The notes under the pieces were generated by a model. The model did no database searches. It saw only the letters and a program-made list of their open reading frames with translations, and was not told where the DNA came from. DNA of 64,000 bases from Actinomycetes bacterium. GTDB lineage: Bacteria; Auribacterota; JAJCYG01. Below, in pieces: positions 1 through 16,399 of the stretch. Position numbers and translations under genes: made by a program. Numbering within the stretch: the stretch's first letter is position 1; each line of letters begins with the position of its first letter. The stretch covers positions 6,708 through 70,707 of the forward strand of contig JAJCYG010000036.1 of assembly GCA_029263055.1 (NCBI GenBank). Reading direction: 5' to 3'.

Positions 1-423
1 TTTTTCTTTTAATAGGTGTGCTGCTTGGCTATGATGAACATTCATCATTGTGCTGGCATGTTTAGGGATTTTAACATTCATTTCATTCATTAGGTAAAGA
101 AGGCCTAAATCGTGAATAATGAGAGCATCTGGCTTGAGTTCTTCTAAGTATAAAAGGTATTCTTTTAGAGAAGCAATTTCTAAAGACGTTAGAAGGCTGT
201 TAAGAGTGATATAGGCTTTGACATTATGTTGATGAGCATATTCAATGGCTTTAGCTAAATCTTCATCTTTAAAATTAAGCCAATCACCATGCTGTCTCAT
301 TGCATATCGTTTACTACTAAGATAAACCGCATCGGCTCCAGCCCGAATAACAGCTTCCAAAGCCTCTTGAGAACCTGCTGGGGCTAAAAGTTCAATTCTT
401 TTGTTTTTATTGATCTTATGCAT
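1..423 (-). CDS. Peptidase U32 family protein, N-terminal 141 aa only (gene continues beyond window start)
   Basis: Absent from the ORF track because there is no stop codon inside the window. The minus-strand frame from ATG 423..421 translates without stops to MHKINKNKRIELLAPAGSQEALEAVIRAGADAVYLSSKRYAMRQHGDW...NVKAYITLNSLL...DALIIHDLG. The LLAPAG, GADAVY and AYITxN blocks are typical of the U32 (PrtC/YdcP/UbiU-UbiV-like) family. The ATG overlaps the stop of the upstream MqnA/D-like gene (TAATG). Confidence 0.7.
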   Translation of the reverse strand, partial: MHKINKNKRIELLAPAGSQEALEAVIRAGADAVYLSSKRYAMRQHGDWLNFKDEDLAKAIEYAHQHNVKAYITLNSLLTSLEIASLKEYLLYLEELKPDALIIHDLGLLYLMNEMNVKIPKHASTMMNVHHSQAAHLLKEK

Positions 424-1282
424 ATTCAACATCTCTTTCTTTTTGAGAAAAGACAATGTCTTGTTGAGGAACGTAATCGATTAATTTTCTCTGATAAGCT
501 CGTAGATAAAGTGTTTTTAGACCTAGAAGTACATCCTCGGGCATAGATAAGGTGTCTTCATTGGCAAACATTTTGACAAAATCATTTCGAACAATGCTTT
601 TTGGACCTCGTCCAAAATGACTTGCGAATTTTAATGCTTTAACAGGATGTTTCAATGCATAAACCATGCTTGCTTGAACCATCTCTTGAATTTGTTTTAT
701 TTTTTCTTCACCTAAGTCTCTTCGAACAACATTGAGACCAACAGGAAGGGGAAGGTGGGTCTCTTGATACCACTTGTTCCCTAAGCAGCAAACTTTATCT
801 ATTGTGCGTTGCGTATAATTTAAAAGTTCTTCATGAATTAAAACTCCCGCATCGACTTCTTCTGATTCAATAGCATCAGCAATAGCATCAAAGGGAAGGT
901 TGACTACTTCAAAATCTTGGTAAAAGTATCTTAATAAAAAATAACCTGTTGTGCTGCAACCAGGAACGCCTACTTTCTTTCCTGCTAGAGAGGTGATTTT
1001 TTTCCCTTTTTTACAACCTAGTACAGGTCCGTATCCTCGACCGACACTGGCTCCTGAAGACAAAATCGCATAATCCTTATCTATCTTTGGATAAAAAATA
1101 GATGAAATCGCGCAGACATCAAATATGCCCATGAGCGCCATTTCATTTAAATCGCGGATATGACCCTGGTAAAACTTAAATGAGTATTCTTTCGAAAGGG
1201 CTATCTTGTTTTTTTCTAAAGCATAATAGTGAAAGGCATCATCGGGATCAGGTGTGTAACCTATTCTTAGAAGCGTTTTCAT
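416..1282 (-). CDS. MqnA/MqnD-family protein (futalosine-route menaquinone biosynthesis family, periplasmic-binding-protein-like fold)
   Basis: 288 aa. The N-terminal LRIGYTPDPDDAFHYYAL and the SSGASVGRGYGPV block resemble the xSPxxNDxFxFYAL and PSGASxGDGYGPV signatures of MqnA (chorismate dehydratase) and MqnD. It is coupled on both sides, sharing a start/stop nucleotide with each neighbour. Confidence 0.55.
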   Translation of the reverse strand: MKTLLRIGYTPDPDDAFHYYALEKNKIALSKEYSFKFYQGHIRDLNEMALMGIFDVCAISSIFYPKIDKDYAILSSGASVGRGYGPVLGCKKGKKITSLAGKKVGVPGCSTTGYFLLRYFYQDFEVVNLPFDAIADAIESEEVDAGVLIHEELLNYTQRTIDKVCCLGNKWYQETHLPLPVGLNVVRRDLGEEKIKQIQEMVQASMVYALKHPVKALKFASHFGRGPKSIVRNDFVKMFANEDTLSMPEDVLLGLKTLYLRAYQRKLIDYVPQQDIVFSQKERDVEYA

Positions 1283-2364
1283 TAATAAATTCCTCCCTCA
1301 ACTTTAAGTGTTAAATTATTTAAAGGCTGTGGATCTGCAATCCCATCCCATAAGCAACCTAATGCGATTGATTCTTCATTTATGGCATTTCGAATGCCTG
1401 TATCTCGTTCTAAAACATTTGGAAGAAAAACACTTTCATCTAATCGGTGAAATAAAACCTGGCCACGTTGATTGGGTTCAATAGGAGTCTTCAATCTTTC
1501 ATTTAAAGGAATGGATTTATCTAAGGAAATTAATTCAATTTGTAGTCGTTCTGAATGTGAATAATAGATGATTTGAGACGGCTCTTCTTTTAAGTCTTTT
1601 AAGCCGTGACAAACGCCAAAGAGACTGTTTCCGTAACCTGGAATAAGCACGGCATTAGGAAAGGAGTTCTTTATTTTTTTTATGGCCTCTTTTGAAATGG
1701 ACATGCCTCCAATATAAATACCTTTAATTTTTTCTCGGATGGTCTTATTTAATAGACTACTAATTGATTCTAAGACAATTGGAGTTGTAAATAAGTTCTC
1801 TATAAGTTGAGTGTTTAAAATCCTTATGGCTTGGCTTGTTACGTGATTCATGTATCGGTTTCGGGCAATAGACTTTGGGGCAAGCTTTCGATACCAGCGT
1901 GGGTCAAAGTCGATTGAAAAGGGGTCTGCACCACTTAATTTTTGTGCAATAGCATGTGAAGCTTTACCAATAACATGTGGCCCTCCGGGACCGATCCAGA
2001 GCCATCTTCCTTTGCCCGAAAACCCAAGATGTTGGGCTACTTGAGTAAAGGGATGAACGAAAATCTCTTCAAATTCATCTTTAAAGTAAGCGGTTGTTTT
2101 TGGAGTTCCTATTGTGCCACCTGTTTCGCAGAAAATTAGAGGCCGTTTTTCTTTTAAAAACTTTATAGGAATAAATTCTTCTATGGGTCTATTTGTTAAA
2201 TCGTCTAATTCCATTGACCCAAGTTTATATAGATCTTTTTTTTGTTGAATTTGATCGCGAACAGAAAAACCAAGTTTTTTCTCTTTTTTAAGCCAATAAG
2301 CACTCCCATGATTAGGATCAAAATGTAAATTGATAATAGTTTGAAGTCTAGAGAGAGATGTCAT
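1282..2364 (-). CDS. Small adenylate-forming enzyme (PaaK / coenzyme F390 synthetase / LuxE acyl-protein-synthetase-like)
   Basis: 360 aa. FCETGGTIGTPK matches the (S/T)SGTTGxPK phosphate-binding loop of small ANL-type adenylating enzymes. There are no TM segments. It overlaps the upstream MMPL gene by 17 nt. Confidence 0.5.
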   Translation of the reverse strand: MTSLSRLQTIINLHFDPNHGSAYWLKKEKKLGFSVRDQIQQKKDLYKLGSMELDDLTNRPIEEFIPIKFLKEKRPLIFCETGGTIGTPKTTAYFKDEFEEIFVHPFTQVAQHLGFSGKGRWLWIGPGGPHVIGKASHAIAQKLSGADPFSIDFDPRWYRKLAPKSIARNRYMNHVTSQAIRILNTQLIENLFTTPIVLESISSLLNKTIREKIKGIYIGGMSISKEAIKKIKNSFPNAVLIPGYGNSLFGVCHGLKDLKEEPSQIIYYSHSERLQIELISLDKSIPLNERLKTPIEPNQRGQVLFHRLDESVFLPNVLERDTGIRNAINEESIALGCLWDGIADPQPLNNLTLKVEGGIY

Positions 2365-4558
2365 TGTTTGGCTCCATTTTTGGTAAGAATTGAACTAAAG
2401 CGGGTAACATAAAAAGATCACATAAATAAGCGCTAAAAATAGCAATCATAGAGAGAATGCTGAATTGAATAATTGGAATAAAGTTGGATATTAAAAGAGA
2501 TGAAAACCCTAGACAAACAACAATAGATGTTAATCCAATAGCAGGGCCAATTTCTTTGACTGCTTCAGCCATGTTCTTTTTATTTTTATAGGTATAGAGA
2601 AGAAAAATGGTGTCATCCACAATAACGCCAATAAGAACAGCAGCGACAAAGACATTGATGTTGTTTATAGAGATGTTTAGTAAGGACATGATTCCGGCTG
2701 TAATGATAATGGGAAAAATGTTAGCGATCATAGAGATGAAGGCAATTTTAATTGATTTAAAAAGGATTAAAAAGCAGAGCGAAATAAGAAGAATTAAGAG
2801 AATAAACGTTTTGACCTGATTAGCTAAAAGTTGGGTTTGAGATTCAAGGATCAGAGGAATAATGCCTGTTATAGAGATTCTTACGTTTTCAGTTGAGATA
2901 TCTCTCCAAATGGTCTCAATGTTTTTCTTTATTTCAGGAAACCGTTTATCAGAGAAGTTTTTGAATCTTAGAGTCATTCTTGATGTCTCTTCTGACTCTG
3001 TTAAGAATATTGTTTTTGCTTGAGGAGAGCGTTGTTCGATTTTTCTCAAGGCTTTAATGAGTAAAGGATGGTTGTTATGGTTTTTATTAAGGCCTCCTCG
3101 ATGCATTTTTTTGAGTGCCTCATCCAGTGGATCAAAGATAGAGTTAATCTTAGTTAGTTCAGGGATTGTTTGCAGTCTTTGTTCAAAGGAGTATATTTTA
3201 TTTAATGAGTCTTTATTTGTTAAAGGTTGTTTGTCTAAAGATTGGAGAAGCAATTGAACCGTCAAAGTGCCTGTTAAGTTTTTTTCGGTTGATTGATAGG
3301 ACTTAATCAAAGGAGAATCTTGTTTAAAAAAGAATAATGCATCAGAATTAATTTTAAGTTTATTTAATTGAAAACCTAAGAAAAGTGTTATTAAACAAAA
3401 AAGAACAAGAATTAAGAGTGCTACTGGCTTTGACTGTTTTTGAAATCCCTTAATTTTAAATGTGAACGCTTGGATTGAGTGAAAATTTCCGTTGAGTAGA
3501 TGGTATAGGCTTGGAATAAAGAAATAGGCTGAGACAAAAGCTAAAAAAATTCCTATAGGAGCAATCCATCCAATGAGTGAAATAGCTTGCTGAGGAGAGA
3601 ATAAAAAAGCGGTTGTTCCCAGAGCAGTGGTAAAGGAAGCCATTAAACCTGGTGTAAAGGTCTCTTTATAAGCTTTTTTAAATGGGTGTGAAGCATGTTT
3701 ATTTAAGGCTATTTTATAAAAAAGGTGTATGGATAGGGTTGTCACAATACAGAACAAAAGAGGAAAAATTATTAACGAAGCTAAGGTAATAGAGACTTTA
3801 AATAGAGGGAATAAACAGAGTGTTGTTAAAACACTAAAGAGAGTTCCCATAGAGACGCAAAAGGCTATTTTAAAGCTTTTGAAGTAGAACATAAGTATTA
3901 GAAAAGAGAGAATGAGAAGCAATGGCAATATTTTAGTCAGGTCTTTTTTTAGAGAAGTCGCTAAAAATTTTGAAAAATAAATGGGCCCAGTTGTGTCAAA
4001 AGAGATATTGAGTTGTTTAAAGCGAAAGTTTAGGTCTTCATAAATGGTTTGATTTTTATTTTTTGAAGACGATTGAGCAAAAACAATAAGTGCTGATGTT
4101 TGTTTGTCCTTGGAGAGTACTAATTGGGACCATCCCTGGTGTTGGGATAGAGTTTGGATAAAGGTGTTTAGCTTAGAAAGGTGAATCGAAGGATTGGTAT
4201 AAAGTTCATTATAATTAAGGTTGTTTTCTTCTAAAAAGAGACTAATAGGATCAATAAAGTCTTCTACATTGGGATCTTTGGTCAATAGTTCTAAGAATTC
4301 AACATAATCTTTTAATAAAGAGTCATTGAGAATAGCTTGAGTATTAAAAGAAAATTGAAGGTATTCATCGTTTTTAAAGTGATGTGTGAGTTTTTGATAG
4401 CTTTGGTATAGAGGATCTTCTTTGTTTATCCAATCGTGAATATTGTTCTCTAGATGTGCTTTTGGTAATAAGAATAAAGTCCCTGTCATTAAGAGAAGAA
4501 CAATACCTGTTATAAATGGAGAGCGCTTTAAAATAAAGTCAGGAAGTCTCTTCTTCAT
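2348..4558 (-). CDS. MMPL/RND-superfamily exporter (two 6-TM bundles separated by large extracytoplasmic loops)
   Basis: 736 aa. There is an N-terminal TM helix, a roughly 190-aa soluble loop, a cluster of about 5 TM helices, a second roughly 200-aa loop and a C-terminal cluster of about 5 TM helices. This is the topology of MMPL / predicted RND-superfamily lipid exporters. The start overlaps the stop of the reductase gene by 1 nt. Confidence 0.6.
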   Translation of the reverse strand: MKKRLPDFILKRSPFITGIVLLLMTGTLFLLPKAHLENNIHDWINKEDPLYQSYQKLTHHFKNDEYLQFSFNTQAILNDSLLKDYVEFLELLTKDPNVEDFIDPISLFLEENNLNYNELYTNPSIHLSKLNTFIQTLSQHQGWSQLVLSKDKQTSALIVFAQSSSKNKNQTIYEDLNFRFKQLNISFDTTGPIYFSKFLATSLKKDLTKILPLLLILSFLILMFYFKSFKIAFCVSMGTLFSVLTTLCLFPLFKVSITLASLIIFPLLFCIVTTLSIHLFYKIALNKHASHPFKKAYKETFTPGLMASFTTALGTTAFLFSPQQAISLIGWIAPIGIFLAFVSAYFFIPSLYHLLNGNFHSIQAFTFKIKGFQKQSKPVALLILVLFCLITLFLGFQLNKLKINSDALFFFKQDSPLIKSYQSTEKNLTGTLTVQLLLQSLDKQPLTNKDSLNKIYSFEQRLQTIPELTKINSIFDPLDEALKKMHRGGLNKNHNNHPLLIKALRKIEQRSPQAKTIFLTESEETSRMTLRFKNFSDKRFPEIKKNIETIWRDISTENVRISITGIIPLILESQTQLLANQVKTFILLILLISLCFLILFKSIKIAFISMIANIFPIIITAGIMSLLNISINNINVFVAAVLIGVIVDDTIFLLYTYKNKKNMAEAVKEIGPAIGLTSIVVCLGFSSLLISNFIPIIQFSILSMIAIFSAYLCDLFMLPALVQFLPKMEPNNDISL

Positions 4559-6138
4559 TATTCCTCTACGAGCTCCTCTATGAGTCGATCGTCTAGTTGC
4601 TTGAAGTATTCACTAAAGATAAACCCCAGTTTTAAGCCTTGTGACTGGTCTCCTAAAATTTTGAGTTTTCCTTGAAAAAAGGCTTCTCTAGGATTGAGTT
4701 TGCCATGGACCATTTCTTGAAAAACTGATTCTTCAATCTCATATCCAAAATCAAAAGAAGTTTCATTTTTTATTTCTAATTTTTTAAGGTGCCCTAAATT
4801 AAATTCCAAAAGTTCTTCAGTTGTGGAATCTCCTTTAATTCGAAAGAGGACCTTTGATTGAATAAAGTCAGCTCTCTTAAGTAGGCTCGTACCAAAATCT
4901 TGATTGGCAAAGTGGTGTAAGTATTTTTTAGAGTCATTAATATTGAGAGAGTCTAGAGCTGATGAGTGAAGTGAGAAACGTTTTTTGTTTTGTTTAAAAA
5001 AGTTAAGTTCATTTAAATAACTAAGTGCAATTGTATCGAGATTTGTCTTTTGTTCAAAAGGTCTAAGTATTGATTGTTCTTGATTCAGAAGCGTTAATGA
5101 AGGAGAAGAAAAAAGGTATGCTTCGTAAGCTTTTGTTGCGCGTTTAAATCTTTGCTCAAGAGGAGATCTTATTTTATTAGCGAGCTCTTCTTTAGATGTT
5201 AGGGCCACTCCGGAGAGGTTAAGAACTCGACAAAAAGCATCTCGAATAGCACTGAGTTTAAACTCTTTAGAAGCAATAACTGAAATGGTTTTTGATTTTA
5301 TCTCTTTTTGTTCTATTTGATTTAAAACAACATGGGCTAACGTTTGAATAGGAATCAAATTGAGAGAAATGGCTGGGTTCATCACAACCCTTAGAGGGAT
5401 ATGTACTTTATTGTCTGTTAGTTGGATCTCGTATTGGGAGTGAAGTTTTTGAGTTTTTTTTAAGTCGTGTAAACAGCATCGTTTAATAAAGTGGAGGGCT
5501 TTTAAAAAGGTATATAGGGTGGTTGCTGATTGGGTTTCTCCGATTACTGTTCCACCGATAACAATGCTAGGACGGTAGATAATTATGGGTTCAGTTGCCT
5601 TTTTTGTTTTTTCTTTTAAGAAGAGTTCTGCCTTAAATTTAGATTTTTCATATGCATTTTTAAAAGATTGTCCTATGTCGAGATCTTTTGAAGTAAAAGG
5701 CCCCGAATGGTTTCCCGCGACAAAGGCAGTGCTGATATGATGAAACGCTTTGCTTTTTAAATATTGATGGAGTTCATAAGCGTGACAAACACTCAAAAAA
5801 TTATTTTGGTGGAGCTCATTGGCGTAAATATCGTCAAAACAGGTCATGCCTGCAGAGTGAATAAAGTGATCAATATTATTTTTGAGATAATCTAGATGAT
5901 TCTGCTTGAGTCCAAATCGAGGAAGGGAGATGTCCCCCTCATACACAAATAGTTGCTCTTTTATTTGACTCGATGTGAGCTGTGTAAAAGGCTGCAGCAG
6001 CTGATGTAGACGTTCTTTTAATTTGCCTTCTTTTTTTCGGACGAGAGTGTGAACTCGATATCCTTTATTAAGAAGGCCTGCTAAAAGATGTTTGCCGATA
6101 TAGCCTGTAGCCCCAGTTAAAAATATGTTTTTTACCAT
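4558..6138 (-). CDS. NAD(P)-dependent thioester/fatty-acyl reductase (NAD_binding_4 type) fused to a C-terminal SCP2 lipid-carrier domain
   Basis: The N-terminal IFLTGATGYIGKHLL Rossmann motif and YRPSIVIGG are as in male-sterility/thioester-reductase domains. The C-terminal HGKLNPREAFFQGKLKILGDQSQGLKLGFIF matches the SCP2 sterol-carrier signature. 526 aa. Confidence 0.6.
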   Translation of the reverse strand: MVKNIFLTGATGYIGKHLLAGLLNKGYRVHTLVRKKEGKLKERLHQLLQPFTQLTSSQIKEQLFVYEGDISLPRFGLKQNHLDYLKNNIDHFIHSAGMTCFDDIYANELHQNNFLSVCHAYELHQYLKSKAFHHISTAFVAGNHSGPFTSKDLDIGQSFKNAYEKSKFKAELFLKEKTKKATEPIIIYRPSIVIGGTVIGETQSATTLYTFLKALHFIKRCCLHDLKKTQKLHSQYEIQLTDNKVHIPLRVVMNPAISLNLIPIQTLAHVVLNQIEQKEIKSKTISVIASKEFKLSAIRDAFCRVLNLSGVALTSKEELANKIRSPLEQRFKRATKAYEAYLFSSPSLTLLNQEQSILRPFEQKTNLDTIALSYLNELNFFKQNKKRFSLHSSALDSLNINDSKKYLHHFANQDFGTSLLKRADFIQSKVLFRIKGDSTTEELLEFNLGHLKKLEIKNETSFDFGYEIEESVFQEMVHGKLNPREAFFQGKLKILGDQSQGLKLGFIFSEYFKQLDDRLIEELVEE

Positions 6139-6257
6139 GAATGAAAGAACCTATTATTTATGTTTTGGTTATGTTAAAGGATGGACTTAAATCTTAGATT
6201 AAAAGAGGATTAACTTTTTTTAATAATAGAGGCTGTTGTTATTTTTTTTCTTGTTCT

Positions 6258-6542
6258 TTACCAGGTGTTTTGGCAGGAATTACAAAACCATTCAGGGTAG
6301 CAGTCGTGAATAATGCACCCTCCGAGTCTAACTTTTCCTTTTTCAGCTTTTTTGAGTAGCTCGGGTCCAGGAAAACCATACACAATAGGGATGGTGTTTT
6401 TGTTTGAGTGGCACTGTCTGCAAAAGTCTCCTGGATCTTCTAAAGTTGCGTTATGAGGTTGTTTGCCATCACTCCATGACGGAGTGGGTGTCACAAGGAA
6501 CAAAATCAAAAAGAGTGGATAGAGTTTGATGAGTTGTTTCAT
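6258..6542 (-). CDS. Small secreted Cys-rich protein with a CXXCH motif (possible mono-haem c-type cytochrome or zinc-ribbon protein)
   Basis: 94 aa. Signal peptide MKQLIKLYPLFLILFLVTPTPSWS. Six Cys residues, including CRQCH (a haem c-binding-type motif) and CNSC. It is the last gene of the co-directional minus-strand gene string that begins with the two-component system. Confidence 0.45.
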   Translation of the reverse strand: MKQLIKLYPLFLILFLVTPTPSWSDGKQPHNATLEDPGDFCRQCHSNKNTIPIVYGFPGPELLKKAEKGKVRLGGCIIHDCYPEWFCNSCQNTW

Positions 6543-8145: not shown

Positions 8146-9579
8146 TCAGTTATTGATAGCAGTGACAACATGGTACGTGTCGCTTCCAATTTTCTGAGTC
8201 ATTCGAATTGTGATCTCTTCTTTAAAAGTATCTTCCATTTTAGGCTTTTGAATTAAAGCCACATTATTTGGATTTGACTTTAAAAATTGGATGAGTCTAT
8301 TGCTATCGTCTATCTTTTTTATAACATGGTCTCCTCCTAAATAATAGAGAAAAGATTCTTTGAAAAATTGATAGCTCGCACATTCTCCATTATTCTGTAC
8401 CAAGGGCTTGATTTGATTGCAAAGGGATCGAGCTGATTTGTATTTGTCTAAAACCGGATAAAAAACGAGCAGTACAAGAGTATAAATCGATGTAGCCACT
8501 ATTAGAATGACATAAAAAGCGCGCTTTATTTTAGCTTTAGAGACTAGTTGTGAAAAGTATTGGCTTAAGAAGAGTGCAAAAGCAGGAAATAGCGGAAGAA
8601 GGTAAAGACTCCGTTTTGAGTCTGAAAGAGTAAAGAAAATAAAAACAAGGCTAAACCAGACAATGAGAAATTTATGAGAAGGCGTTAACTTTTCTTTTGC
8701 TCGGCGTAATTGAATAATGGCTAAAGGAAGAAAAAAGATCCAAGGCATTGCATCGACGGGGAAGTTAATAAAATAATAGTAAAAGGGACGTATGTGCCCT
8801 GATGGGGCTATATAGCGAAAAAAATTGTGAACAATAAAATGTTGATAAAGGTATTCAGAACCTGCTTGCTCGTAGGCAAGCCAAACCCAAACCCCTATTG
8901 TAGAGACAAGGATTAAGAGTCCTAACGGAATCCACATCTTTAATAAAAAACTGAGCTGACGTTGCCACAGAAGAAAGAAAAAGATGATGCCGCATGGAAT
9001 AAGAATGCCAATAGGGCCCTTTGTTAAAAACCCCCCCGCCAAGGTTAGGTAAAAGACAAACCATAGACACGCTTCTTTATCATCAGAATATTTTGGCTTT
9101 GAGGTATACACAGTCCAAAAGAGAGCTAAAGATGAAAGAATAAAAAAAGCGAGAAGCATATCGAGCTGACCCCATGATGCTTGCCACCAGAAGCGATAGG
9201 TGGTGGCTAAAATCAGCATGGCGATCAATCCGGTTTTTAAATCAAACATCTCTTTGCCTAAGTGAATAAGAATTAAGAGCGCCAAAACAGCTGCTATGGC
9301 TGAAGGAATGCGTGCTGTAAAAGCATTAGTTTCCCCTTTAAAAAAAAGTTTGGATGCTGCAACCGTGACCCAAACATAAGCAGGAGGTTTGTCAGTATAG
9401 ATTTCTCCGTTTAAGTGAGGAACCGTGTAGTTTTCTGTCTGTATCATTTCCCGGGCAACTTGGGCAAACCGCGGTTCGTCTGGATTCCAAAGGTCGCGAG
9501 TACTAATCCCTACGAGAAGGACAAAGCTAAAAAAGACCAAAAAGAGGCTGGCCCAACGTTTAGTGATTGTTATATCCAT
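8146..9579 (-). CDS. ArnT/PMT-family (GT39/GT83) polyprenyl-phosphate-sugar-dependent glycosyltransferase, probably modifying lipid A or core
   Basis: The N-terminal DEPRFAQVAREM...PHLNGEIYTDKPPAYVWV is the signature of 4-amino-4-deoxy-L-arabinose transferase / protein-O-mannosyltransferase-family enzymes. At least 10 TM helices. 477 aa. Confidence 0.75.
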   Translation of the reverse strand: MDITITKRWASLFLVFFSFVLLVGISTRDLWNPDEPRFAQVAREMIQTENYTVPHLNGEIYTDKPPAYVWVTVAASKLFFKGETNAFTARIPSAIAAVLALLILIHLGKEMFDLKTGLIAMLILATTYRFWWQASWGQLDMLLAFFILSSLALFWTVYTSKPKYSDDKEACLWFVFYLTLAGGFLTKGPIGILIPCGIIFFFLLWQRQLSFLLKMWIPLGLLILVSTIGVWVWLAYEQAGSEYLYQHFIVHNFFRYIAPSGHIRPFYYYFINFPVDAMPWIFFLPLAIIQLRRAKEKLTPSHKFLIVWFSLVFIFFTLSDSKRSLYLLPLFPAFALFLSQYFSQLVSKAKIKRAFYVILIVATSIYTLVLLVFYPVLDKYKSARSLCNQIKPLVQNNGECASYQFFKESFLYYLGGDHVIKKIDDSNRLIQFLKSNPNNVALIQKPKMEDTFKEEITIRMTQKIGSDTYHVVTAINN

Positions 9580-9664: not shown

Positions 9665-11107
9665 TTATTCATCTTTGGCTGGAAAGGTTAGGTTAAAGAC
9701 GGTTCCTTTGCCTTCTGTGCTCTCTACAGAAATTGTTCCGTTATGAGAGAGCACAATGGATTGAACTAACGAAAGCCCTAGGCCATAGCCTTTGCTGTTT
9801 CTCGATTTGTCTGTCCGGTAGAAGCGATTAAAAAGGTGTGGGAGATCTGTTGTAGAGATTCCTTTGCCATTGTCTTTGATTGTCACAGAGATCGTGCCAT
9901 TATTTCGTTTAGCTTCAACTTCAATGAGGTCTGCCTTAGCATGCTTGGCAGCATTAGATGTGAGGTTATAAAGAGCCTGGTTTAGAAGTCTATAATTACC
10001 TTGGATAGTTAATGGGATTTGTCTGTCTGTTTTTGTTTCTACTTTTGTGGATTGGTTTTCTGCCTCTAAAAGTATCTGAGTCTGTTCTTGAACTTCTTCA
10101 ATTAATTGAGTGAGATTAAATGTTTCTGTCTCCTGAGGTTTGTTTTTTCTGGCATCAAGCTTAGCAAGCAGGAGTAGGTTTTTAATAATTGCGATGAGGT
10201 GGTTGACTTCGTTTAGACTTTCTGTGAGAAGTAATTGGTATTCACTCGACGTTCTTTCTCGGGTTAGTGCCACCTCTATAGATCCTTTTAAGGCTGTTAA
10301 TGGTGTATTTAGTTCATGTGACGCAGCAGCGCTAAACTGTTTTTCTCGTTCAAAGGAGGTCTCTAGTCTAAATAGCATTTGTTTTAAGGACTCAGTTAGT
10401 TTTTGAATTTCAATAGGCCCTTTTTGAGGGAGGTCAATTGATTGAAAATTCTCTGCTTCTTTAATTTTTTCTGCTTCTTGTACGATTTTGTCTAGAGGCT
10501 TTAGTCCTTGTTTAGAAATAAAGTAAATAATGATAGAGGACAAAATTGAAATAATAGGTATCCAGACCAGTAAAGTGGCTAAAAATCGTTTTGTGGCCCA
10601 ATAAACATTTTTTAATGATTTTGCAATGATGATGTGATAAATCTGTCCCTCTTTGTCTCGGTAAAGATAATGGAGTTGTATAAGAGGTGTCTCTTTATTG
10701 ATGGCATCTGCTTTAAATGAAGTCGTATTGACTTTTAAGCCAGTATTAAAAATAGGCATCCTCTTGTTTCGTGCATTGGGAGATCTGAAAAGTTTTGTGT
10801 GGCCTTGCCTTTGAATCCAAACCAGTTCATTGATTCCTTCAAGATCTTCTTCTAGGTCGACTTCTTCTTCGGTATGACCTAGTTCTTTAGCTAGCTTAAA
10901 CTCATCATTGTCTTCATCAATAATTCGAGTGAGTAGTTTGACTTGATTGGTTAGGTTCTTTTTTACTTCTAAGTCTGTTACTTTTTTATAAGAATAAAAA
11001 AGAACAGCAACAGTCGTAATCATGGCACCGACAAGAATCAATGAGTTGAATAAGGTTAAACGTGTTTTAAAAGAGCTAAACAGATTCAGTTTTTTCTTTA
11101 AGGACAT
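9665..11107 (-). CDS. Two-component sensor histidine kinase (PmrB/BasS-like genomic position)
   Basis: H-box SHELNTPLTAL. HATPase_c block GYGLGLSLVQSIVLSHNGTISVESTEGKGTVFNLTFP. Two TM helices flank a periplasmic domain. I chose the start at the internal MSLKKK (ATG 11107), which leaves a 28-nt gap after the regulator gene. The track ORF extends to 11212. Confidence 0.8.
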   Translation of the reverse strand: MSLKKKLNLFSSFKTRLTLFNSLILVGAMITTVAVLFYSYKKVTDLEVKKNLTNQVKLLTRIIDEDNDEFKLAKELGHTEEEVDLEEDLEGINELVWIQRQGHTKLFRSPNARNKRMPIFNTGLKVNTTSFKADAINKETPLIQLHYLYRDKEGQIYHIIIAKSLKNVYWATKRFLATLLVWIPIISILSSIIIYFISKQGLKPLDKIVQEAEKIKEAENFQSIDLPQKGPIEIQKLTESLKQMLFRLETSFEREKQFSAAASHELNTPLTALKGSIEVALTRERTSSEYQLLLTESLNEVNHLIAIIKNLLLLAKLDARKNKPQETETFNLTQLIEEVQEQTQILLEAENQSTKVETKTDRQIPLTIQGNYRLLNQALYNLTSNAAKHAKADLIEVEAKRNNGTISVTIKDNGKGISTTDLPHLFNRFYRTDKSRNSKGYGLGLSLVQSIVLSHNGTISVESTEGKGTVFNLTFPAKDE

Positions 11108-11759
11108 AGCCTCTACCTCTAAGTGTGTGAATAAATTTGTTTGGACTCTCTTGACTGATTTTATTGCGTAACCGATTAATGTAGACATCAATAATATTAG
11201 TCTCTGTATCAAAGTTTAATCCCCAAACATTTTCAGCAATCATGGTTCGAGTGAGAACTATGTTGGGATTGCGCATGAAATATTCTAAAAGAGTGTATTC
11301 TTTTGTTGTTAGTTCTATAAGCTTTTCATTACATTTTGCTTGGTGTTTCACAGTATCGAGTTCTATATTTTGGATTTGAATAAGGTGGGATGTTATTGAT
11401 GTTCCTCTGCGTAATAGGGCGCGAATACGTGCCAAAAGCTCGGCAAAGGAAAAGGGCTTGGTTAAGTAATCGTCTGCCCCTGCATTAAGACCTTTGATCT
11501 TGTCTTCAACTACATCCTTAGCTGTGAGCATTAGGATTGGAGTTGAAATATTGTTTCCTCGAATCTCTTGGCAGACTTGAAAGCCATCTTTAATAGGCAA
11601 AAGGATATCTAGGAGAATGAGGTCATATGGAGCGTTAATCGCGTAATCAATCCCATCTTGGCCGTTATTAACTACATCAACGATATAGCTCTCCTCTTCA
11701 AGTCCTTTTTTGATGAAACTAGAGACTTTGGGCTGATCTTCTATCACAAGAATTTTCAT
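11076..11759 (-). CDS. OmpR/PhoB-family response regulator (PmrA/BasR-like genomic position)
   Basis: MKILVIEDQPKV...DLILLDILLP...LMLTAKD...GADDYLTKPF is a receiver domain. The C-terminus is winged-helix (LTTKEYTLLEYFMRNPN...RLRNKI). I chose the start at MKILVIED (ATG 11759) by family convention. The track ORF starts at 11792. Confidence 0.85.
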   Translation of the reverse strand: MKILVIEDQPKVSSFIKKGLEEESYIVDVVNNGQDGIDYAINAPYDLILLDILLPIKDGFQVCQEIRGNNISTPILMLTAKDVVEDKIKGLNAGADDYLTKPFSFAELLARIRALLRRGTSITSHLIQIQNIELDTVKHQAKCNEKLIELTTKEYTLLEYFMRNPNIVLTRTMIAENVWGLNFDTETNIIDVYINRLRNKISQESPNKFIHTLRGRGYVLKEKTESV

Positions 11760-11796
11760 AGCGTGGTAGTTTAGCATACAATAGGGACTCATCCTT

Positions 11797-11830: not shown

Positions 11831-12087
11831 AAATAAATATTTTATGATTATTATATTTTGATTTGTCTCAATTTTTCTTCTATGAAGAGGTGCTCGAGAG
11901 AGGCTTAAATAAATTTTTGACCCAGATCTTGGGGTAAGGTTCTTCTGACGTGGGGCTTGCTACACAATATGCTTCAAGTTATCAAATTGAGGTTATTGAC
12001 ATAATTGTAAGTATTTACAAATTTGGAATAAGTTGATAGCCTAATCGAGTTCGTTTTCTTAACCCTTAAAAGAGAAGATAGGCAGTC

Positions 12088-13899
12088 ATGAAAAACCAGT
12101 CAAACACTGTCGACCGTCGTAAGTTTAATCGAACAGAAATAGCTCCTAAAGAGAGTTATTCTTTTCAGGCTTATTCTCTTAAACGAAACATGCCAGAACA
12201 GTTAATGGGTGAATTACTCGATTTTTCTCTTCAAGGTGCTGGCATAAAACTCCTTTCAGTTCAAAACCCTTTAAATAAAGGGGATTTTCTTTATGGAATC
12301 CAATTTGGCCGTCCTGATGGCGAAGAGGTTTCCAAAGCTGTGGGTGTGATTCGCTCAACCGACACTGTACTTGATGACAGTGGCCAACCTTTTTGGAGAG
12401 TTGGCGTCGAGCTTATCAATATCCCTGGCGAGCAAAAGAATGCTGTCTCCAATTCAGAATTTCCAGTTCGTCCTCAACGTTATGAAATTGACGCTGAATG
12501 CGAAGAGCTCACCGAAGTTGCTTTTCAAATAGATAACGAATCTCTTTTCGGAAAACTACACAATGTTTCTAAATTTGGTTTAGCGGTTAAGATTGGCCGA
12601 GAAGCGCCACTAAAATTAAACGTAGGTCGTTATTTAGAGGGTGTTGAAGTTAAAGTTGATGGCGAAATGGTTTTTACAGGGTTTTTAGTGATCCGTAATT
12701 TGCGCCAAACTCAAGACTTTACTCTGATCGGTTGTGAAGTAACAGGAAGTTTAATTGATGTGGATCAAATTTTAGAAAATCAGAAAATAGTTCATTACAA
12801 ATCAAGAGCCAAAGAAAAATGTCTTTCCTTAAGTGAAATCCAACGTATTCCAAATGATTTTAAGGCTCTCGTCGCTGATTTTCGTTATTGCTTAGATAAA
12901 TTTCATAACGAACTAGAGCGTCCCTACGCCAATGATTCTAAAGATAAAGTGGTCCGAGAAGTTTATCCTTTATTTAAATCTCTTGTAGATGAAGTTTATT
13001 CAAAGTTCCGTCGTTGCGTTGAAAATATTTCAGCAGAAGAACATGAATCGTACAAAAACTATTTTCAAAAACAATTGCACCCTCTTTTATTAACCGCCCC
13101 TTTTATTAAACACACCTATCAAAAGCCACTTGGTTATGCGGGTGACTATGACATGGTGCTTAAGGTGTTAGACAAAGAGATCGAAGGGTCGACCTTTCTT
13201 TCAAAACTGCTCAACATGTATTGTTGGAATATGAACGCGGCTGAAGCCCATCGAAATCGAATCACTTATTTAGTTGATTTGCTTCAAGAGGTTGTCAGTA
13301 CTAAAGAACATCGCGAGATCTTAGTGATTGGATCTGGGCCTGCTCGGGAAATTAAACTCTTTTTAAATAAGGCTCCAGCAGATGTTGATTGTACGTTTAC
13401 GCTGCTTGATTTTGATTCAAGAGCGCTCACTCATAGCCAAGAAGAATTGCTTTCTGAGGTGTTGAAAAATCGCTCAAACGTAAAAATCAAATTTATGAAC
13501 AAAAGTGTGCGCCAAATCATTAAGTCCAAGAGCTGTGATACTAATACTGGTAAGTATGATCTGGTTTACTGCGCGGGGCTATTTGATTATCTTTCAGATC
13601 CATTCTGCGTTAAGATGCTGGAAATAATGGGATTACATCTAAAACCTACAGGGCGTATGATTGCCACAAACGTGACAGAGCTCAATTATTACCGATACTT
13701 CATGGAATTCATGGGAGAGTGGTATTTGACACACCGGTCTCTCGATGCTATGTTGAACTTAGCGACTGGTTTACAGAAAAAACATGGGATGTTCGCAGAC
13801 TGTGAAGTGGATGCCACAGGGGTTAATGTATTCTTAAATGTTCAAAAAAGCAAAGAAAACACAGGCACAGCAGACTCCAGCCTTACAAAGTGCTTATAA
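12088..13899 (+). CDS. PilZ-like domain(s) fused to a class I SAM-dependent methyltransferase
   Basis: N-terminal RRKFNRTEI ... LLDFSLQGAGIK (RxxxR plus DxSxxG = PilZ c-di-GMP-binding signature). A second, degenerate copy follows (VRPQRYEI ... LHNVSKFGLAV). The C-terminal half has EILVIGSGPAREI (motif I) and LVYCAGLFDYLSDP, typical of SAM methyltransferases. Confidence 0.55.
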   Translation: MKNQSNTVDRRKFNRTEIAPKESYSFQAYSLKRNMPEQLMGELLDFSLQGAGIKLLSVQNPLNKGDFLYGIQFGRPDGEEVSKAVGVIRSTDTVLDDSGQPFWRVGVELINIPGEQKNAVSNSEFPVRPQRYEIDAECEELTEVAFQIDNESLFGKLHNVSKFGLAVKIGREAPLKLNVGRYLEGVEVKVDGEMVFTGFLVIRNLRQTQDFTLIGCEVTGSLIDVDQILENQKIVHYKSRAKEKCLSLSEIQRIPNDFKALVADFRYCLDKFHNELERPYANDSKDKVVREVYPLFKSLVDEVYSKFRRCVENISAEEHESYKNYFQKQLHPLLLTAPFIKHTYQKPLGYAGDYDMVLKVLDKEIEGSTFLSKLLNMYCWNMNAAEAHRNRITYLVDLLQEVVSTKEHREILVIGSGPAREIKLFLNKAPADVDCTFTLLDFDSRALTHSQEELLSEVLKNRSNVKIKFMNKSVRQIIKSKSCDTNTGKYDLVYCAGLFDYLSDPFCVKMLEIMGLHLKPTGRMIATNVTELNYYRYFMEFMGEWYLTHRSLDAMLNLATGLQKKHGMFADCEVDATGVNVFLNVQKSKENTGTADSSLTKCL

Positions 13900-16399
13900 A
13901 TCCTATATAGTCCAATCTAATATCAAACGTCTCCGGGTGGGTTGCTTGCTCGGTGGTACTTTAGTGCCTCTTGGTTCTCTTTTCGATTACTTCATTTATC
14001 CAGAGCTTTTTAAATCGTTTCTTCTTGTTAGGTTATTCTTTGGCCTACTCTACGGTTTGATCTACCTTGTTTCATTTACAGAATTCACTAGAAAGCATTC
14101 TGTTGGGATGATGCTTTTCTTAACAGAGTCCATTGCCATTCCTATTGTGATGATGATCTGTTTTACCGGTGGGTATCTCTCGCCTTATTATGCGGGCCTT
14201 AATCTTATTATTTTAGGCGTAGGGGTATTGTTTACTTGGATGATCTCTGAAGCTGTGATTGTTTGTCTCTTGATCTATCTAACTTATTTAATTCCTGTTC
14301 TATTATTAGATACAATTACCGACTACCACACTTTTTTTAATAACAATTATTTTATTTCCTTTACGATTATCATTGCTGTAGTGAGTAACTACTTTGCTTC
14401 AAAATTGCGCGAAAGTGATTTTGTGAGTCGTCACAAACTAGGGGCAGCGGTCAAGCAGTTGAATGAACTTGATAAAGCAAAAACCAGTTTTTTCTCAGGT
14501 ATCAGCCACGAATTAAGAACGCCTTTAACTTTGATCTTAGCTCCTATTGAAAATTTATTAAAACAATCTAAATTAAACAAAGAAACCAGAGGTCGTTTAG
14601 AAATATGCCATAGCAATGCGCTCCGTCTTTTAAAATTAATTAACAATTTATTGGATGTGGTTCGCATTAACACAGGGCGAATGGAGTTGCGCTATTCTAA
14701 TAAAGACGTGACAAAATTGTTAAAACAAGTTGTGGTCAATGTTTCATCAATGGCTGAGAAGAAAAATATTAAAATAGAGTTTGTCTCTAAAGGAAATGGG
14801 TTCACCTTTTTTTGGGATGAAGATCAGCTGGAAAAAGTGATTGTGAATTTAATTTATAACTCTTTAAAATTTACCCCTGAACAAGGAACCATTAAGGTGG
14901 GGTGTAAAGATAAAGGGGATGAGGTTGTTATTTCTATTAAAGATAGCGGAATTGGTATTCCAGAAGATCAAGTGGGAAGAGTATTTGACACCTTTTATCA
15001 GGTCGACTCAGGGAGCAAGCGAAGTTATGAGGGGAGTGGAATGGGACTTTCTTTATGCCGTCAAATCGTGGAATTGCATGGAGGCAAGATTTGGGCTGAA
15101 AGCAAACTAGGCGAAGGAACAAAAATGATTTTCACCCTTCCTAAGAAATTGGAGGTAAATGCTTCGAAGATAAAGACTGAAATCAAGGACGAAGATTGGA
15201 CCAAGCAAGTTAGTAAAGAAGCTATTTATGAAAAAGGTGAAGTCGGTATTTTAGATAGTGAAGATAAAAAGAGGGCTGCAGAGCCTGATCAAACAAATCA
15301 TGACGGATCAGGAACCGTTTTAGTGGTTGAAGATAATCATGATATGCGTGAGTTTGTCTGTCTTGAAATGGCCAATACATACACTGTTTTGAGTGCTATG
15401 AATGGGCAAGAAGGTTTAGAAATTGCAGAGAAAGAAAGTCCTGATTTGATTATTAGCGATGTGATGATGCCGGTGATGGATGGTTATGAGTTGTGCCGTC
15501 ATTTAAAAGCAGGTGAAAAGACCAAACAAATCCCAGTGCTCATGCTCACAGCTAAAACAGAACTCGACATGCGCCTCTCAGGGTATGAACAGGGTGCTGA
15601 TGATTATGTGGCTAAGCCATTTAATTTAGAAGAGCTTATGGCTAAAGCTAAAGCTTTAATCCAAGGGCGTCGACTCGAGCGTGAGATGGAAGTTTACCGT
15701 CGCCTTGCCTCTGTTGGAGAGTTGGCAGCAGGTGTGGCCCATGAAATTAATAACGCGCTCAATGTGGCTGTATTAGCAAACTCTCGATTGAAAAAATTGG
15801 TCACTAATCAAGCTGGAGGTGAGCAGTTACAGGTTGAAACGTTTTTAAAGGAATCAGGCAAAGGAATAGACCTCTTAAACGAAGGGATTGGTCGTGCACA
15901 TGGTGTGGTAAAAAGTCTCTTAACTTTTTCACAAAAAAATTCAGAAGGATTTAAAAAACAAAATATTCAAGAAGGTTTGAATTCTACTTTAACCATGCTT
16001 GAGAGTGATCTCAAAATAAAAGCAAAAGTAGTTAAAGTTTATTCTAAAGAAAATGAAGCTTATTGTGATTTAAATCAGCTGAATCAAGTCTTTCTCAATA
16101 TTTTGAAAAACTCAATTGAAGCGATTACTGAAAATGGGATAATTACTCTTAAGACGTGGGTGGATGAAGAAAATTATTTTGTGTCGATTAAAGACAATGG
16201 ACATGGTATTGCCAAAGAAGAGGTTGGCCGAATTTTTGATCCTTTTTTTACAACAAAGCCAGTGGGTCAGGGAACAGGATTAGGTTTGAGTGTGAGCTAC
16301 AATATTATGCAGGAGCATGGTGGTTCACTTATTTGCAAAAGCGAACCCGACCAAGGGGCCGAGTTCATTCTTTCGCTTCCAATCTCGTTAACTAAATAA
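13838..16399 (+). CDS. Hybrid sensor kinase with unusual HK-REC-HK architecture (6-7 TM sensor, HisKA/HATPase, receiver, second HisKA-like/HATPase)
   Basis: Six to seven N-terminal TM helices. First H-box SHELRTPLTLI plus GSGMGLSLCRQIVELHGGKIW. Receiver VLVVEDNHDMREF...LIISDVMMPVMDG...DDYVAKPF. Second H-box AAGVAHEINNALNV plus GTGLGLSVSYNIMQEHGGSL. The start is uncertain: the track ORF overlaps the upstream gene by 62 nt. Confidence 0.8.
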   Translation: MFKKAKKTQAQQTPALQSAYKSYIVQSNIKRLRVGCLLGGTLVPLGSLFDYFIYPELFKSFLLVRLFFGLLYGLIYLVSFTEFTRKHSVGMMLFLTESIAIPIVMMICFTGGYLSPYYAGLNLIILGVGVLFTWMISEAVIVCLLIYLTYLIPVLLLDTITDYHTFFNNNYFISFTIIIAVVSNYFASKLRESDFVSRHKLGAAVKQLNELDKAKTSFFSGISHELRTPLTLILAPIENLLKQSKLNKETRGRLEICHSNALRLLKLINNLLDVVRINTGRMELRYSNKDVTKLLKQVVVNVSSMAEKKNIKIEFVSKGNGFTFFWDEDQLEKVIVNLIYNSLKFTPEQGTIKVGCKDKGDEVVISIKDSGIGIPEDQVGRVFDTFYQVDSGSKRSYEGSGMGLSLCRQIVELHGGKIWAESKLGEGTKMIFTLPKKLEVNASKIKTEIKDEDWTKQVSKEAIYEKGEVGILDSEDKKRAAEPDQTNHDGSGTVLVVEDNHDMREFVCLEMANTYTVLSAMNGQEGLEIAEKESPDLIISDVMMPVMDGYELCRHLKAGEKTKQIPVLMLTAKTELDMRLSGYEQGADDYVAKPFNLEELMAKAKALIQGRRLEREMEVYRRLASVGELAAGVAHEINNALNVAVLANSRLKKLVTNQAGGEQLQVETFLKESGKGIDLLNEGIGRAHGVVKSLLTFSQKNSEGFKKQNIQEGLNSTLTMLESDLKIKAKVVKVYSKENEAYCDLNQLNQVFLNILKNSIEAITENGIITLKTWVDEENYFVSIKDNGHGIAKEEVGRIFDPFFTTKPVGQGTGLGLSVSYNIMQEHGGSLICKSEPDQGAEFILSLPISLTK

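Follow-up and report, generated by a model that had tools for sequence, protein, structure and literature searches.

What does a thioester reductase (TR) fused to an SCP2 domain do in an operon that also encodes a U32 protein? The arrangement occurs in a stretch of 64,000 nucleotides (nt) of contig JAJCYG010000036.1 (positions 6,708 to 70,707; GenBank assembly GCA_029263055.1, GTDB phylum Auribacterota), which we analysed as a whole and call the window; unless a related locus is named, positions are those of the window. A first-pass annotation had described the fusion protein of 526 amino acids (aa), here TR-SCP2, and likened its pairing with a U32 gene to the UbiT-UbiU-UbiV system of O2-independent ubiquinone synthesis. 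The operon consists of five co-directional minus-strand genes: that of TR-SCP2, which comes first (4558–6138), followed by those of an MMPL/HAE3 pump, an adenylating enzyme, an MqnD-type protein and the U32 protein. Every junction among the five overlaps, by 1–17 nt; the operon is translationally coupled, and the SCP2 module and the U32 gene are co-operonic, as had been claimed. Related gene sets form an undescribed, widespread, quinone-linked cassette whose chemistry is predictable in outline, and in our judgement the chances are about even that the fusion is the reductase of a two-component carboxylic-acid reductase in a futalosine-linked tailoring-and-export cassette.

To characterize the fusion, we compared both parts of TR-SCP2 with domain models and structures. 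Pfam assigned residues 7–215 to NAD_binding_4 (PF07993; E = 4.3e-41, 141.2 bits against a cut-off of 20.1) and, with the whole protein scanned, residues 454–508 to SCP2 (PF02036; E = 2.2e-7, 31.6 bits against a gathering score of 21.3). When the C-terminal 180 aa were split off and scanned alone, they passed the SCP2 model over profile positions 26–100 of 101 (E = 7e-8, 33.2 bits), and relatives cover positions 14–100 of 101 with E-values down to 3e-13. The peptide that had been quoted as the SCP2 signature, HGKLNPREAFFQGKLKILGD, is located at residues 475–494. Sequence matches in the PDB fell into the same two groups: residues 3–215 matched the terminal reductase (R) domains 4U7W (MxaA) and 8V1X (TR of a polyketide synthase, PKS) and the carboxylic acid reductase 5MSP, and residues 463–515 matched the SCP2 domains 4UEI, 1QND, 2C0L and 1IKT. 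The NCBIfam thioester-reductase model TIGR01746 matched at E = 1.4e-33 and 116.7 bits, under its cut-off of 213.

An AlphaFold2 model built from eight fusion homologues (predicted local distance difference test score 83.6, predicted template modelling score 0.82) placed helices, then a five-strand sheet and then C-terminal helices in residues 367–526, an alpha/beta, SCP2-like order. Foldseek searches with this model returned R domains of PKSs and non-ribosomal peptide synthetases on top (8V1X and 4U7W/4W4T, E ~1e-16), the best structural match, 8V1X, being a thioreductase domain of a Streptomyces coelicolor PKS. The TGxTGxxG Rossmann motif (T8–G15), S136/T137, Y163 and K167 are invariant in all eight aligned fusion proteins. 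By Pfam score, catalytic positions and fold, TR-SCP2 is a member of the terminal R domains. Its reductase domain, of the extended-SDR, terminal thioester-reductase type, spans approximately residues 1–360 (5059–6138, minus strand; Pfam, NCBIfam, PDB and Foldseek) and its SCP2 domain approximately residues 390–526 (4561–4971, minus strand; Pfam, PDB matches and predicted topology). The reading of the protein as a reductase-SCP2 fusion is thus borne out for both domains. The SCP2 domain, for which an alpha/beta topology is modelled, may bind a hydrophobic ligand in a tunnel. The TR domain may use coenzyme A (CoA); no carrier-protein gene was seen in the window operon or in related cassettes.

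The fusion had also been called unusual, which proved only partly right. An initial impression of rarity, from eight proteins found by word-indexed search, was overturned by an exhaustive HMMER search, in which ∼80 of the best 150 cluster representatives (50% identity) matched TR-SCP2 through its SCP2 end; both NAD_binding_4 and SCP2 were present in all ten representatives sampled. In seven related loci, SCP2 is instead a separate gene of 121–195 aa between the TR and MMPL genes (Pfam confirmed six of these open reading frames, at E = 1e-10 to 2e-15, and in three of the loci the two reading frames were verified to be separate). These loci probably belong to Scalindua, because their 379-aa adenylating enzymes resemble ones named Scalindua. 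As SCP2 stands beside TR in Scalindua-type loci as a gene of its own, the window protein is a fusion of genes that are adjacent elsewhere.

Which acid might the reductase act on? The adenylating enzyme of the operon (1282–2364, minus strand; 360 aa) is a stand-alone enzyme of the EhpF/ThnN type without the C-terminal ANL subdomain. Pfam returned nothing above threshold for it, but EhpF structures (PDB 3L2K/3HGU) aligned with residues 7–349 of 360 on 24–354 of 366 (E = 5e-28). Members of its family are 345–395 aa long and share an ETxGTxGxP loop and DFDPRW and GYGN motifs; relatives carry the JGI labels 'ThnN' or 'PaaK-like'. We also considered a LuxE-like acyl-cysteine enzyme and ruled it out: the family alignment contains no conserved Cys, which makes a LuxE-type acyl-enzyme unlikely. 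The next gene (416–1282, minus strand) encodes a 288-aa member of the 1,4-dihydroxy-6-naphthoate synthase (MqnD) family, with a VitK2_biosynth match (PF02621) at E = 3.4e-61 and 207 bits. Its best PDB matches were AF1704 (1ZBM, 1e-53) and the MqnD protein TTHA1568 (2CZL/3A3U, 1e-38), and its IHE motif aligns with His145 of TTHA1568. No MqnA structure was among the PDB matches of the window protein, whereas paralogues in the related loci L002 and L071 do match MqnA structures. An EhpF-like enzyme next to an MqnD-type protein points to an aryl carboxylate, rather than a generic lipid thioester, as the substrate that is reduced.

L071 itself carries three VitK2_biosynth paralogues (5600–6430, 12058–12951 and 12985–13878 of that locus), one of MqnA type directly upstream of TR-SCP2 and two tandem copies of MqnD type inside the cassette. 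At least one of these MqnD-type copies may have a function other than housekeeping.

The U32 gene is cut by the window edge, and its first 141 aa (1–423, minus strand) are what the window holds of a two-domain Fe-S-type protein; the gene overlaps the MqnD-type gene by 8 nt. The fragment matched Pfam Peptidase_U32 (E = 1.6e-12) and the UbiU (E = 4e-20) and TrhP (E = 5e-19) models, and a homologue search with its 141 aa returned short fragments only and no full-length protein. The Logan contig L088 (2.3 kb), which is 100% identical to window positions 1–2086, lengthens the gene by 203 nt that encode CISQSAQCFHSGIATEMSSNRGKCLKSC. The first-pass annotation had proposed checking the U32 protein for the Fe-S cysteines of UbiU and UbiV, and they are retained in this extension as CISQSAQC-x15-CLKSC, a CX6CX15CX3C motif. 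Most U32 families share this motif (Pelosi et al. 2019, PMC6747719), and it occurs in all U32 orthologues from the cassettes, for which a 4Fe-4S cluster is predicted from the four cysteines. The N-terminus is 56–66% identical to orthologues in L001, L004 and L005/L086 (677–711 aa), and full-length orthologues carry two U32 domains on one polypeptide, the second with five conserved Cys.

The long U32 architecture resembles that of RlhA (E. coli YdcP, the 23S rRNA hydroxylase), whose N-domain is 32–36% identical, and we tried this identification. The first U32 domain is about equidistant from the E. coli proteins RlhA-N, TrhP and UbiU (28–36% identity), and the second aligns with the N-domain of RlhA and not with its C-half. 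As the second halves are not colinear, the cassette protein is a tandem U32 protein and not an RlhA orthologue; unlike RlhA, it also has a quinone-related gene context. Nor do its orthologues belong to the ubiquinone system. Full-length U32 orthologues scored 163–176 bits with the UbiU model, against a cut-off of 440, and 62–78 bits with the UbiV model, against 275. The UbiT model NF047962 gave 13.2 bits for the window and 22.2 bits for L001, against a cut-off of 46.9, and identity to E. coli UbiT was 30% over 50 aa. With these models far under their cut-offs, and futalosine rather than ubi genes linked to the cassette, membership in UbiT-UbiU-UbiV did not hold up: the 'echo' is a good analogy.

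How good can be seen from the published system (PMC6747719). SCP2 and U32 Fe-S proteins are encoded with quinone genes in both cases, both in low-oxygen habitats, and the cassette U32 protein has the CX6CX15CX3C motif. The cassette differs in having one two-domain U32 polypeptide and an SCP2 domain that is tied to a reductase; its neighbours are futalosine/menaquinone genes, and U32 is absent from a third of cassettes.

To see which genes keep company with TR-SCP2, we collected related loci (numbered with an L). The first contexts came from Magnetococcales, metagenome-assembled genomes of Gammaproteobacteria, Omnitrophota, Gemmataceae (including the cultured Frigoriglobus tundricola, locus L087) and other Planctomycetota, and anammox Scalindua probably also carries the cassette. 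The first contexts share TR-SCP2, the adenylating enzyme and a class-III aminotransferase, and usually add MMPL, an alpha/beta hydrolase, a DUF547 protein of the periplasm and a lipoprotein in which Pfam recognizes no domain. A metagenome scan seeded by the adenylating-enzyme alignment added 80 loci to give 92, of which 67 are non-redundant (dereplicated at 90% identity) and 35 well flanked (at least 3 kb on both sides). Among these 35 loci, TR was present in 31, the class-III aminotransferase in 29, MMPL in 27, a long U32 in 21, the alpha/beta hydrolase in 20 and an MqnD-type gene in 12. A first sample, with U32 in four of 12 loci, had made U32 look like a rare accessory; the larger census overturned this. 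The pairing of SCP2 and U32 in a quinone setting, a further part of the original comparison, therefore recurs in 21 of 35 loci, some of them with a stand-alone, UbiT-like SCP2. As SCP2 stays with the reductase in cassettes free of U32, the reductase is its first partner. No description of the cassette was found in the literature searched (U32, SCP2, ThnN and MqnD in combinations with quinone and aminotransferase).

Some cassettes depart from this composition. In L114 (5086–6291), L115 and L168 (7027–8445), a shorter U32 (401–472 aa) lies directly upstream of TR-SCP2, which is followed by the adenylating enzyme, YceI, a hydrolase and an ABC-2 exporter, without aminotransferase or MMPL; this variant pathway may end at the aldehyde or alcohol. 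A conserved lipoprotein of ∼370–530 aa travels with the cassette in L004, L005/L086, L062, L071, L087 and others (for example, L005 7121–8668). It has a lipobox Cys, no Pfam domain and a conserved C-terminal part with a CGCY[YF]K motif, and a DUF547 protein with a signal peptide is often encoded beside it. The two are likely periplasmic partners of the exporter.

The census further showed that U32 and MqnD avoid each other. U32 or MqnD was present in 33 of the 35 well-flanked cassettes: 21 had only U32, 12 only MqnD, none both and two neither (Fisher p = 1e-7), and one of the latter two has a shorter U32 directly upstream of TR-SCP2. The two genes share one slot, with the adenylating enzyme or hydrolase on one side and the aminotransferase on the other, and U32-type and MqnD-type cassettes are interspersed on the TR-SCP2 tree. 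Only in the window were U32 and MqnD found together. This exclusivity could mean that the two are alternatives, that the absent gene is encoded elsewhere, or that related lineages were sampled repeatedly.

Several loci tie the cassette directly to menaquinone synthesis. In the canonical futalosine pathway, MqnA, MqnE (aminofutalosine synthase), MqnB, MqnC (cyclic dehypoxanthine futalosine synthase) and MqnD act in this order, before prenylation, decarboxylation and methylation. The cassette of L002 adjoins MqnE, an MqnA-type gene, MqnC and a PNP_UDP_1 gene, and a CofH_C radical-SAM gene and a second VitK2 gene lie beside that of L008. In L117, L130, L150, L160 and L165 (partly also L129 and L167), one strand carries, in order, MqnA, an MqnE::MqnC fusion, TR-SCP2, MMPL, adenylating enzyme, hydrolase, U32, aminotransferase and multihaem cytochromes. 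The MqnE::MqnC fusion (L150 4061–6283, and L117, L130, L160 and L165) is 694–740 aa long and has two CxxxCxxC radical-SAM motifs; its halves in L150 scored 710 and 787 bits, both over their NCBIfam equivalog cut-offs, and the MqnA proteins of related loci are also over theirs and encoded in the same operon as the cassette. These operons have U32 and no MqnD within 10 kb. In sum, the cassette shares with the canonical pathway the MqnD-type gene of the window operon and MqnA and MqnE::MqnC in related loci, whereas the adenylating enzyme, TR-SCP2, aminotransferase, U32 and exporter have no place in that pathway.

Respiratory genes are frequent neighbours as well. Scalindua-type loci have a cytochrome b, a petD-like gene and two multihaem cytochromes c downstream of the cassette; cytochrome c or cytochrome-maturation genes adjoin it there and in L004 and L005/L086, and multihaem cytochromes with MtrC/ExtKL-like domains were found downstream of cassettes. 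YceI and START, proteins for hydrophobic ligands, recur nearby. In tblastn searches with E. coli queries, the 10-kb flanks contained weak UbiE-like methyltransferase matches at three loci, UbiD-like matches at two, no UbiX-type gene and no other Ubi proteins. The UbiD-like decarboxylases (31–32% identical to E. coli UbiD) lie in the Gemmataceae-type loci L062 (5890–6948) and L143 (3445–4527), on the opposite strand a few kb from the cassette, and are candidates for MqnL.

Precedents for the individual steps exist in other pathways. A 2010 study by Bera and colleagues is said to describe EhpF as an ANL adenylating enzyme without the C-terminal subdomain and to propose that EhpF and EhpG convert phenazine carboxylate to the aldehyde through an acyl-adenylate; GriC we take to be the same type of enzyme. 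In grixazone synthesis by Streptomyces, the acyl-AMP formed by GriC from 3-amino-4-hydroxybenzoate is reduced to the aldehyde by GriD (PMC10179220). Both EhpF/EhpG and GriC/GriD start from chorismate-derived aryl acids and yield an aryl aldehyde. Like EhpF/EhpG of the Pantoea phenazine pathway and GriC/GriD, the cassette has a stand-alone adenylase of ∼360 aa, without C-terminal subdomain, beside an NAD(P)H reductase. However, the reductase is here an SDR-type TR fused to SCP2, whereas EhpG is annotated as ALDH family; the cassette sits among respiratory-quinone genes and theirs in an antibiotic cluster, and it includes an aminotransferase and an exporter. Primary amines are known to arise when an omega-transaminase acts after a terminal reductase, as CpkG does after CpkC-TR in coelimycin synthesis (PMC5365063). 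The cassette shares with this pair the R-domain fold (8V1X) and a class-III aminotransferase, and with them a path from a carboxyl-level carbon through the aldehyde to a primary amine, but it lacks a PKS or carrier protein and would activate the acyl group with a free-standing adenylase.

Together, these precedents suggest a model that starts from a hydrophobic aryl carboxylate provided by MqnD-type chemistry. This acid would be the MqnD product 1,4-dihydroxy-6-naphthoate, whose carboxylate the futalosine pathway supplies, or else a derivative of it, perhaps with a prenyl chain. The EhpF-type enzyme would adenylate this carboxylate, and the TR domain would use NAD(P)H to reduce the activated acyl group to the aldehyde, with the hydrophobic substrate held by the fused SCP2 domain, much as ubiquinone intermediates are proposed to be held by UbiJ and UbiT. 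A class-III aminotransferase, whose gene in the window genome would be expected beyond the window edge, would then aminate the aldehyde to leave an aminomethyl group. The two-domain Fe-S U32 protein might carry out an O2-independent step on the same ring system, a hydroxylation by analogy with UbiU/V. Finally, the MMPL pump would move the product out of the cytoplasm or inner leaflet, a task that in other lineages may fall to an ABC system with the periplasmic lipoprotein and DUF547 protein. The data directly show the domain identities, the operon structure, the conservation of the cassette, its linkage to mqn and cytochrome genes and the Fe-S motif; by analogy with the systems above we infer the substrate, the order of steps, the U32 reaction and the product. 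The substrate may carry an isoprenoid or lipid tail. The sequence from carboxylate through acyl-adenylate and aldehyde to aminomethyl is, in our view, the most economical reading, because EhpF/GriC activation, aldehyde-releasing TR domains and reductase-then-transaminase precedents fit together.

Several points weigh against this two-component reductase. The proposal draws on sequence and gene context for every member of the cassette. TR domains normally reduce thioesters, and the operon has neither a carrier protein nor a CoA-ligase C-terminal subdomain. Direct reduction of an acyl-adenylate is reportedly itself only a proposal, made for EhpF/EhpG, and the partners of EhpF and GriC are ALDH/LuxC-type reductases rather than an SDR-type TR. 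In the whole 64-kb window, tblastn gave no match to an aminotransferase, hydrolase, MqnA, MqnC, MqnE, MqnB, DUF547 protein, lipoprotein, YceI or START. We know of no aminomethyl-naphthoquinone. No UbiA/MenA prenyltransferase was detected near any cassette (tblastn, E. coli queries, 10-kb flanks), so that the idea of SCP2 holding a polyprenyl tail is unsupported. Furthermore, as a UbiD-like gene lies near two cassettes, ordinary decarboxylative menaquinone synthesis may coexist with the cassette, which may then make a side product.

We therefore weighed other explanations, two of which turn on the U32 protein. The cassette core could be a UbiT/UbiU/UbiV-like O2-independent quinone hydroxylase in which SCP2 presents a polyprenyl precursor to U32 and the reductase is an add-on. 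The CX6CX15CX3C motif, the two U32 domains that mimic a UbiU-UbiV heterodimer, stand-alone SCP2 in some loci, the presence of U32 in 21 of 35 cassettes, the shorter U32 adjoining TR-SCP2 in L114, L115 and L168 and the quinone-biosynthesis context all speak for it. We nonetheless consider it quite unlikely: 12 of 35 cassettes have SCP2 and TR with no U32 nearby, SCP2 is fused or adjacent to the reductase and not to U32, the UbiT, UbiU and UbiV models stay far under their cut-offs, and canonical futalosine menaquinone synthesis, by textbook knowledge, proceeds without ring hydroxylation. Alternatively, the long U32 might be no hydroxylase but stand in for MqnD without being homologous to it, or reach the same aryl carboxylate by another route, with the window caught in a transitional state that has both. 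Such a replacement would account for the strict exclusivity (21 against 12 loci, none with both; Fisher p = 1e-7), the common slot, the mixture of both types on the TR-SCP2 tree and the operons that combine MqnA and MqnE::MqnC with U32 and no MqnD within 10 kb. Yet U32 and MqnD occur side by side in the window, with an overlap of 8 nt, MqnD catalyses no redox step, and no U32 protein is known for such chemistry; moreover, MqnD could sit elsewhere in U32-type genomes, and the loci are phylogenetically non-independent. On balance we regard the substitution as unlikely.

The nature of the product leaves room for two more. A lipid pathway unrelated to quinones could work in a LuxCDE-like manner, with a fatty acid freed by the hydrolase, adenylated, reduced to the fatty aldehyde, aminated and exported as fatty amine by MMPL. 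NAD_binding_4 is indeed the fatty-acyl reductase family (the plant FAR structure 7EOZ was among the matches), SCP2 binds acyl chains, MMPL/HAE3 pumps export lipids, and the alpha/beta hydrolase is present in 20 of 35 cassettes. But the adenylating enzyme belongs with EhpF, and the enzymes known of that type use aryl acids (PMC10179220); its family lacks a conserved Cys on which a LuxE-type acyl-enzyme could form, and MqnD or U32 is found in 33 of 35 cassettes, several of them joined to MqnA, MqnE and MqnC genes; we consider this pathway very unlikely. The quinone-linked reductase could, on the other hand, make a soluble aminomethyl-naphthoquinone without a prenyl chain, which would be exported to the periplasm or out of the cell and serve the neighbouring multihaem cytochromes as redox shuttle or cofactor instead of acting as a membrane quinone. 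SCP2, YceI and START suggest a lipidic ligand, and a prenyltransferase may be encoded elsewhere, which leaves a soluble product improbable to us, even though no prenyltransferase lies near any cassette, an exporter of varying type (MMPL, MacB-like ABC or ABC-2) is always present, the lipoprotein and DUF547 partners have signal peptides and the downstream cytochromes are MtrC/ExtKL-like.

Beyond the two-component reductase in a futalosine-linked cassette, we tentatively propose, as a possibility well short of even, that the cassette is an unrecognized branch of the futalosine pathway in anaerobes, probably including anammox bacteria. Instead of simply being removed, the ring carboxylate would be reduced and aminated to give a new, exported, amine-bearing naphthoquinone that is used with the adjacent cytochrome b and multihaem cytochrome complexes, and U32 would take on a novel function: that of the first O2-independent naphthoquinone hydroxylase, or that of a non-homologous replacement for MqnD. 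If the model holds, an undescribed quinone-derived molecule would be made by organisms of the nitrogen, iron and sulfur cycles, namely Gemmataceae, Omnitrophota, Magnetococcales, Gammaproteobacteria of the sulfur cycle and probably anammox Scalindua. The SCP2-plus-U32 principle of O2-independent quinone chemistry would then extend to menaquinone as well as ubiquinone, and one of many orphan U32 subfamilies would gain a testable function. An EhpF-type adenylase with an SDR-type TR would be a second, non-homologous type of two-component carboxylic-acid reductase, of interest for biocatalysis. The exclusivity of MqnD and U32 in one operon slot poses a sharp question that whole-genome surveys can answer, and the cultured carrier Frigoriglobus tundricola makes the model experimentally accessible.

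The exporter gene of the window (2348–4558, minus strand) encodes a 736-aa protein of the RND superfamily, MMPL/HAE3 type, and its start overlaps the TR-SCP2 stop by 1 nt. It matched Pfam MMPL (E = 4.7e-22) and TIGR00921 HAE3 (E = 1.4e-47, under its cut-off), and the HpnN and BstA models were much weaker on it than HAE3. A hopanoid HpnN/HpnO system was considered and rejected, as HpnN models reached 43–69 bits against cut-offs of 752–1100 and no hopanoid genes were seen. Across cassettes the exporter type varies between MMPL, MacB-like ABC and ABC-2. A promoter and terminator scan returned fewer sites than in shuffled sequence and was uninformative, and no tRNA or Rfam elements were found in the window.

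Upstream of the operon, a 94-aa secreted protein (6258–6542, minus strand) is encoded 120 nt before TR-SCP2 and in the same direction; it contains a single CxxCH motif for haem binding (CRQCH) besides other Cys pairs and matches nothing in Pfam or NCBIfam. A PMT/PMT_2 glycosyltransferase (ArnT-like, polyprenyl-phosphate-sugar dependent; 8146–9579, minus strand) lies 2 kb upstream of the operon; a 512-aa PMT_2 protein is encoded just upstream of the TR gene in L127, and a 527-aa open reading frame occupies the equivalent position in L136. Further upstream are an OmpR-type two-component pair (9665–11792, minus strand) and, on the plus strand (12088–16399), a large hybrid histidine kinase after a 603-aa uncharacterized protein. 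In L002, L005/L086 and L009, too, the cassette has a two-component pair beside it.

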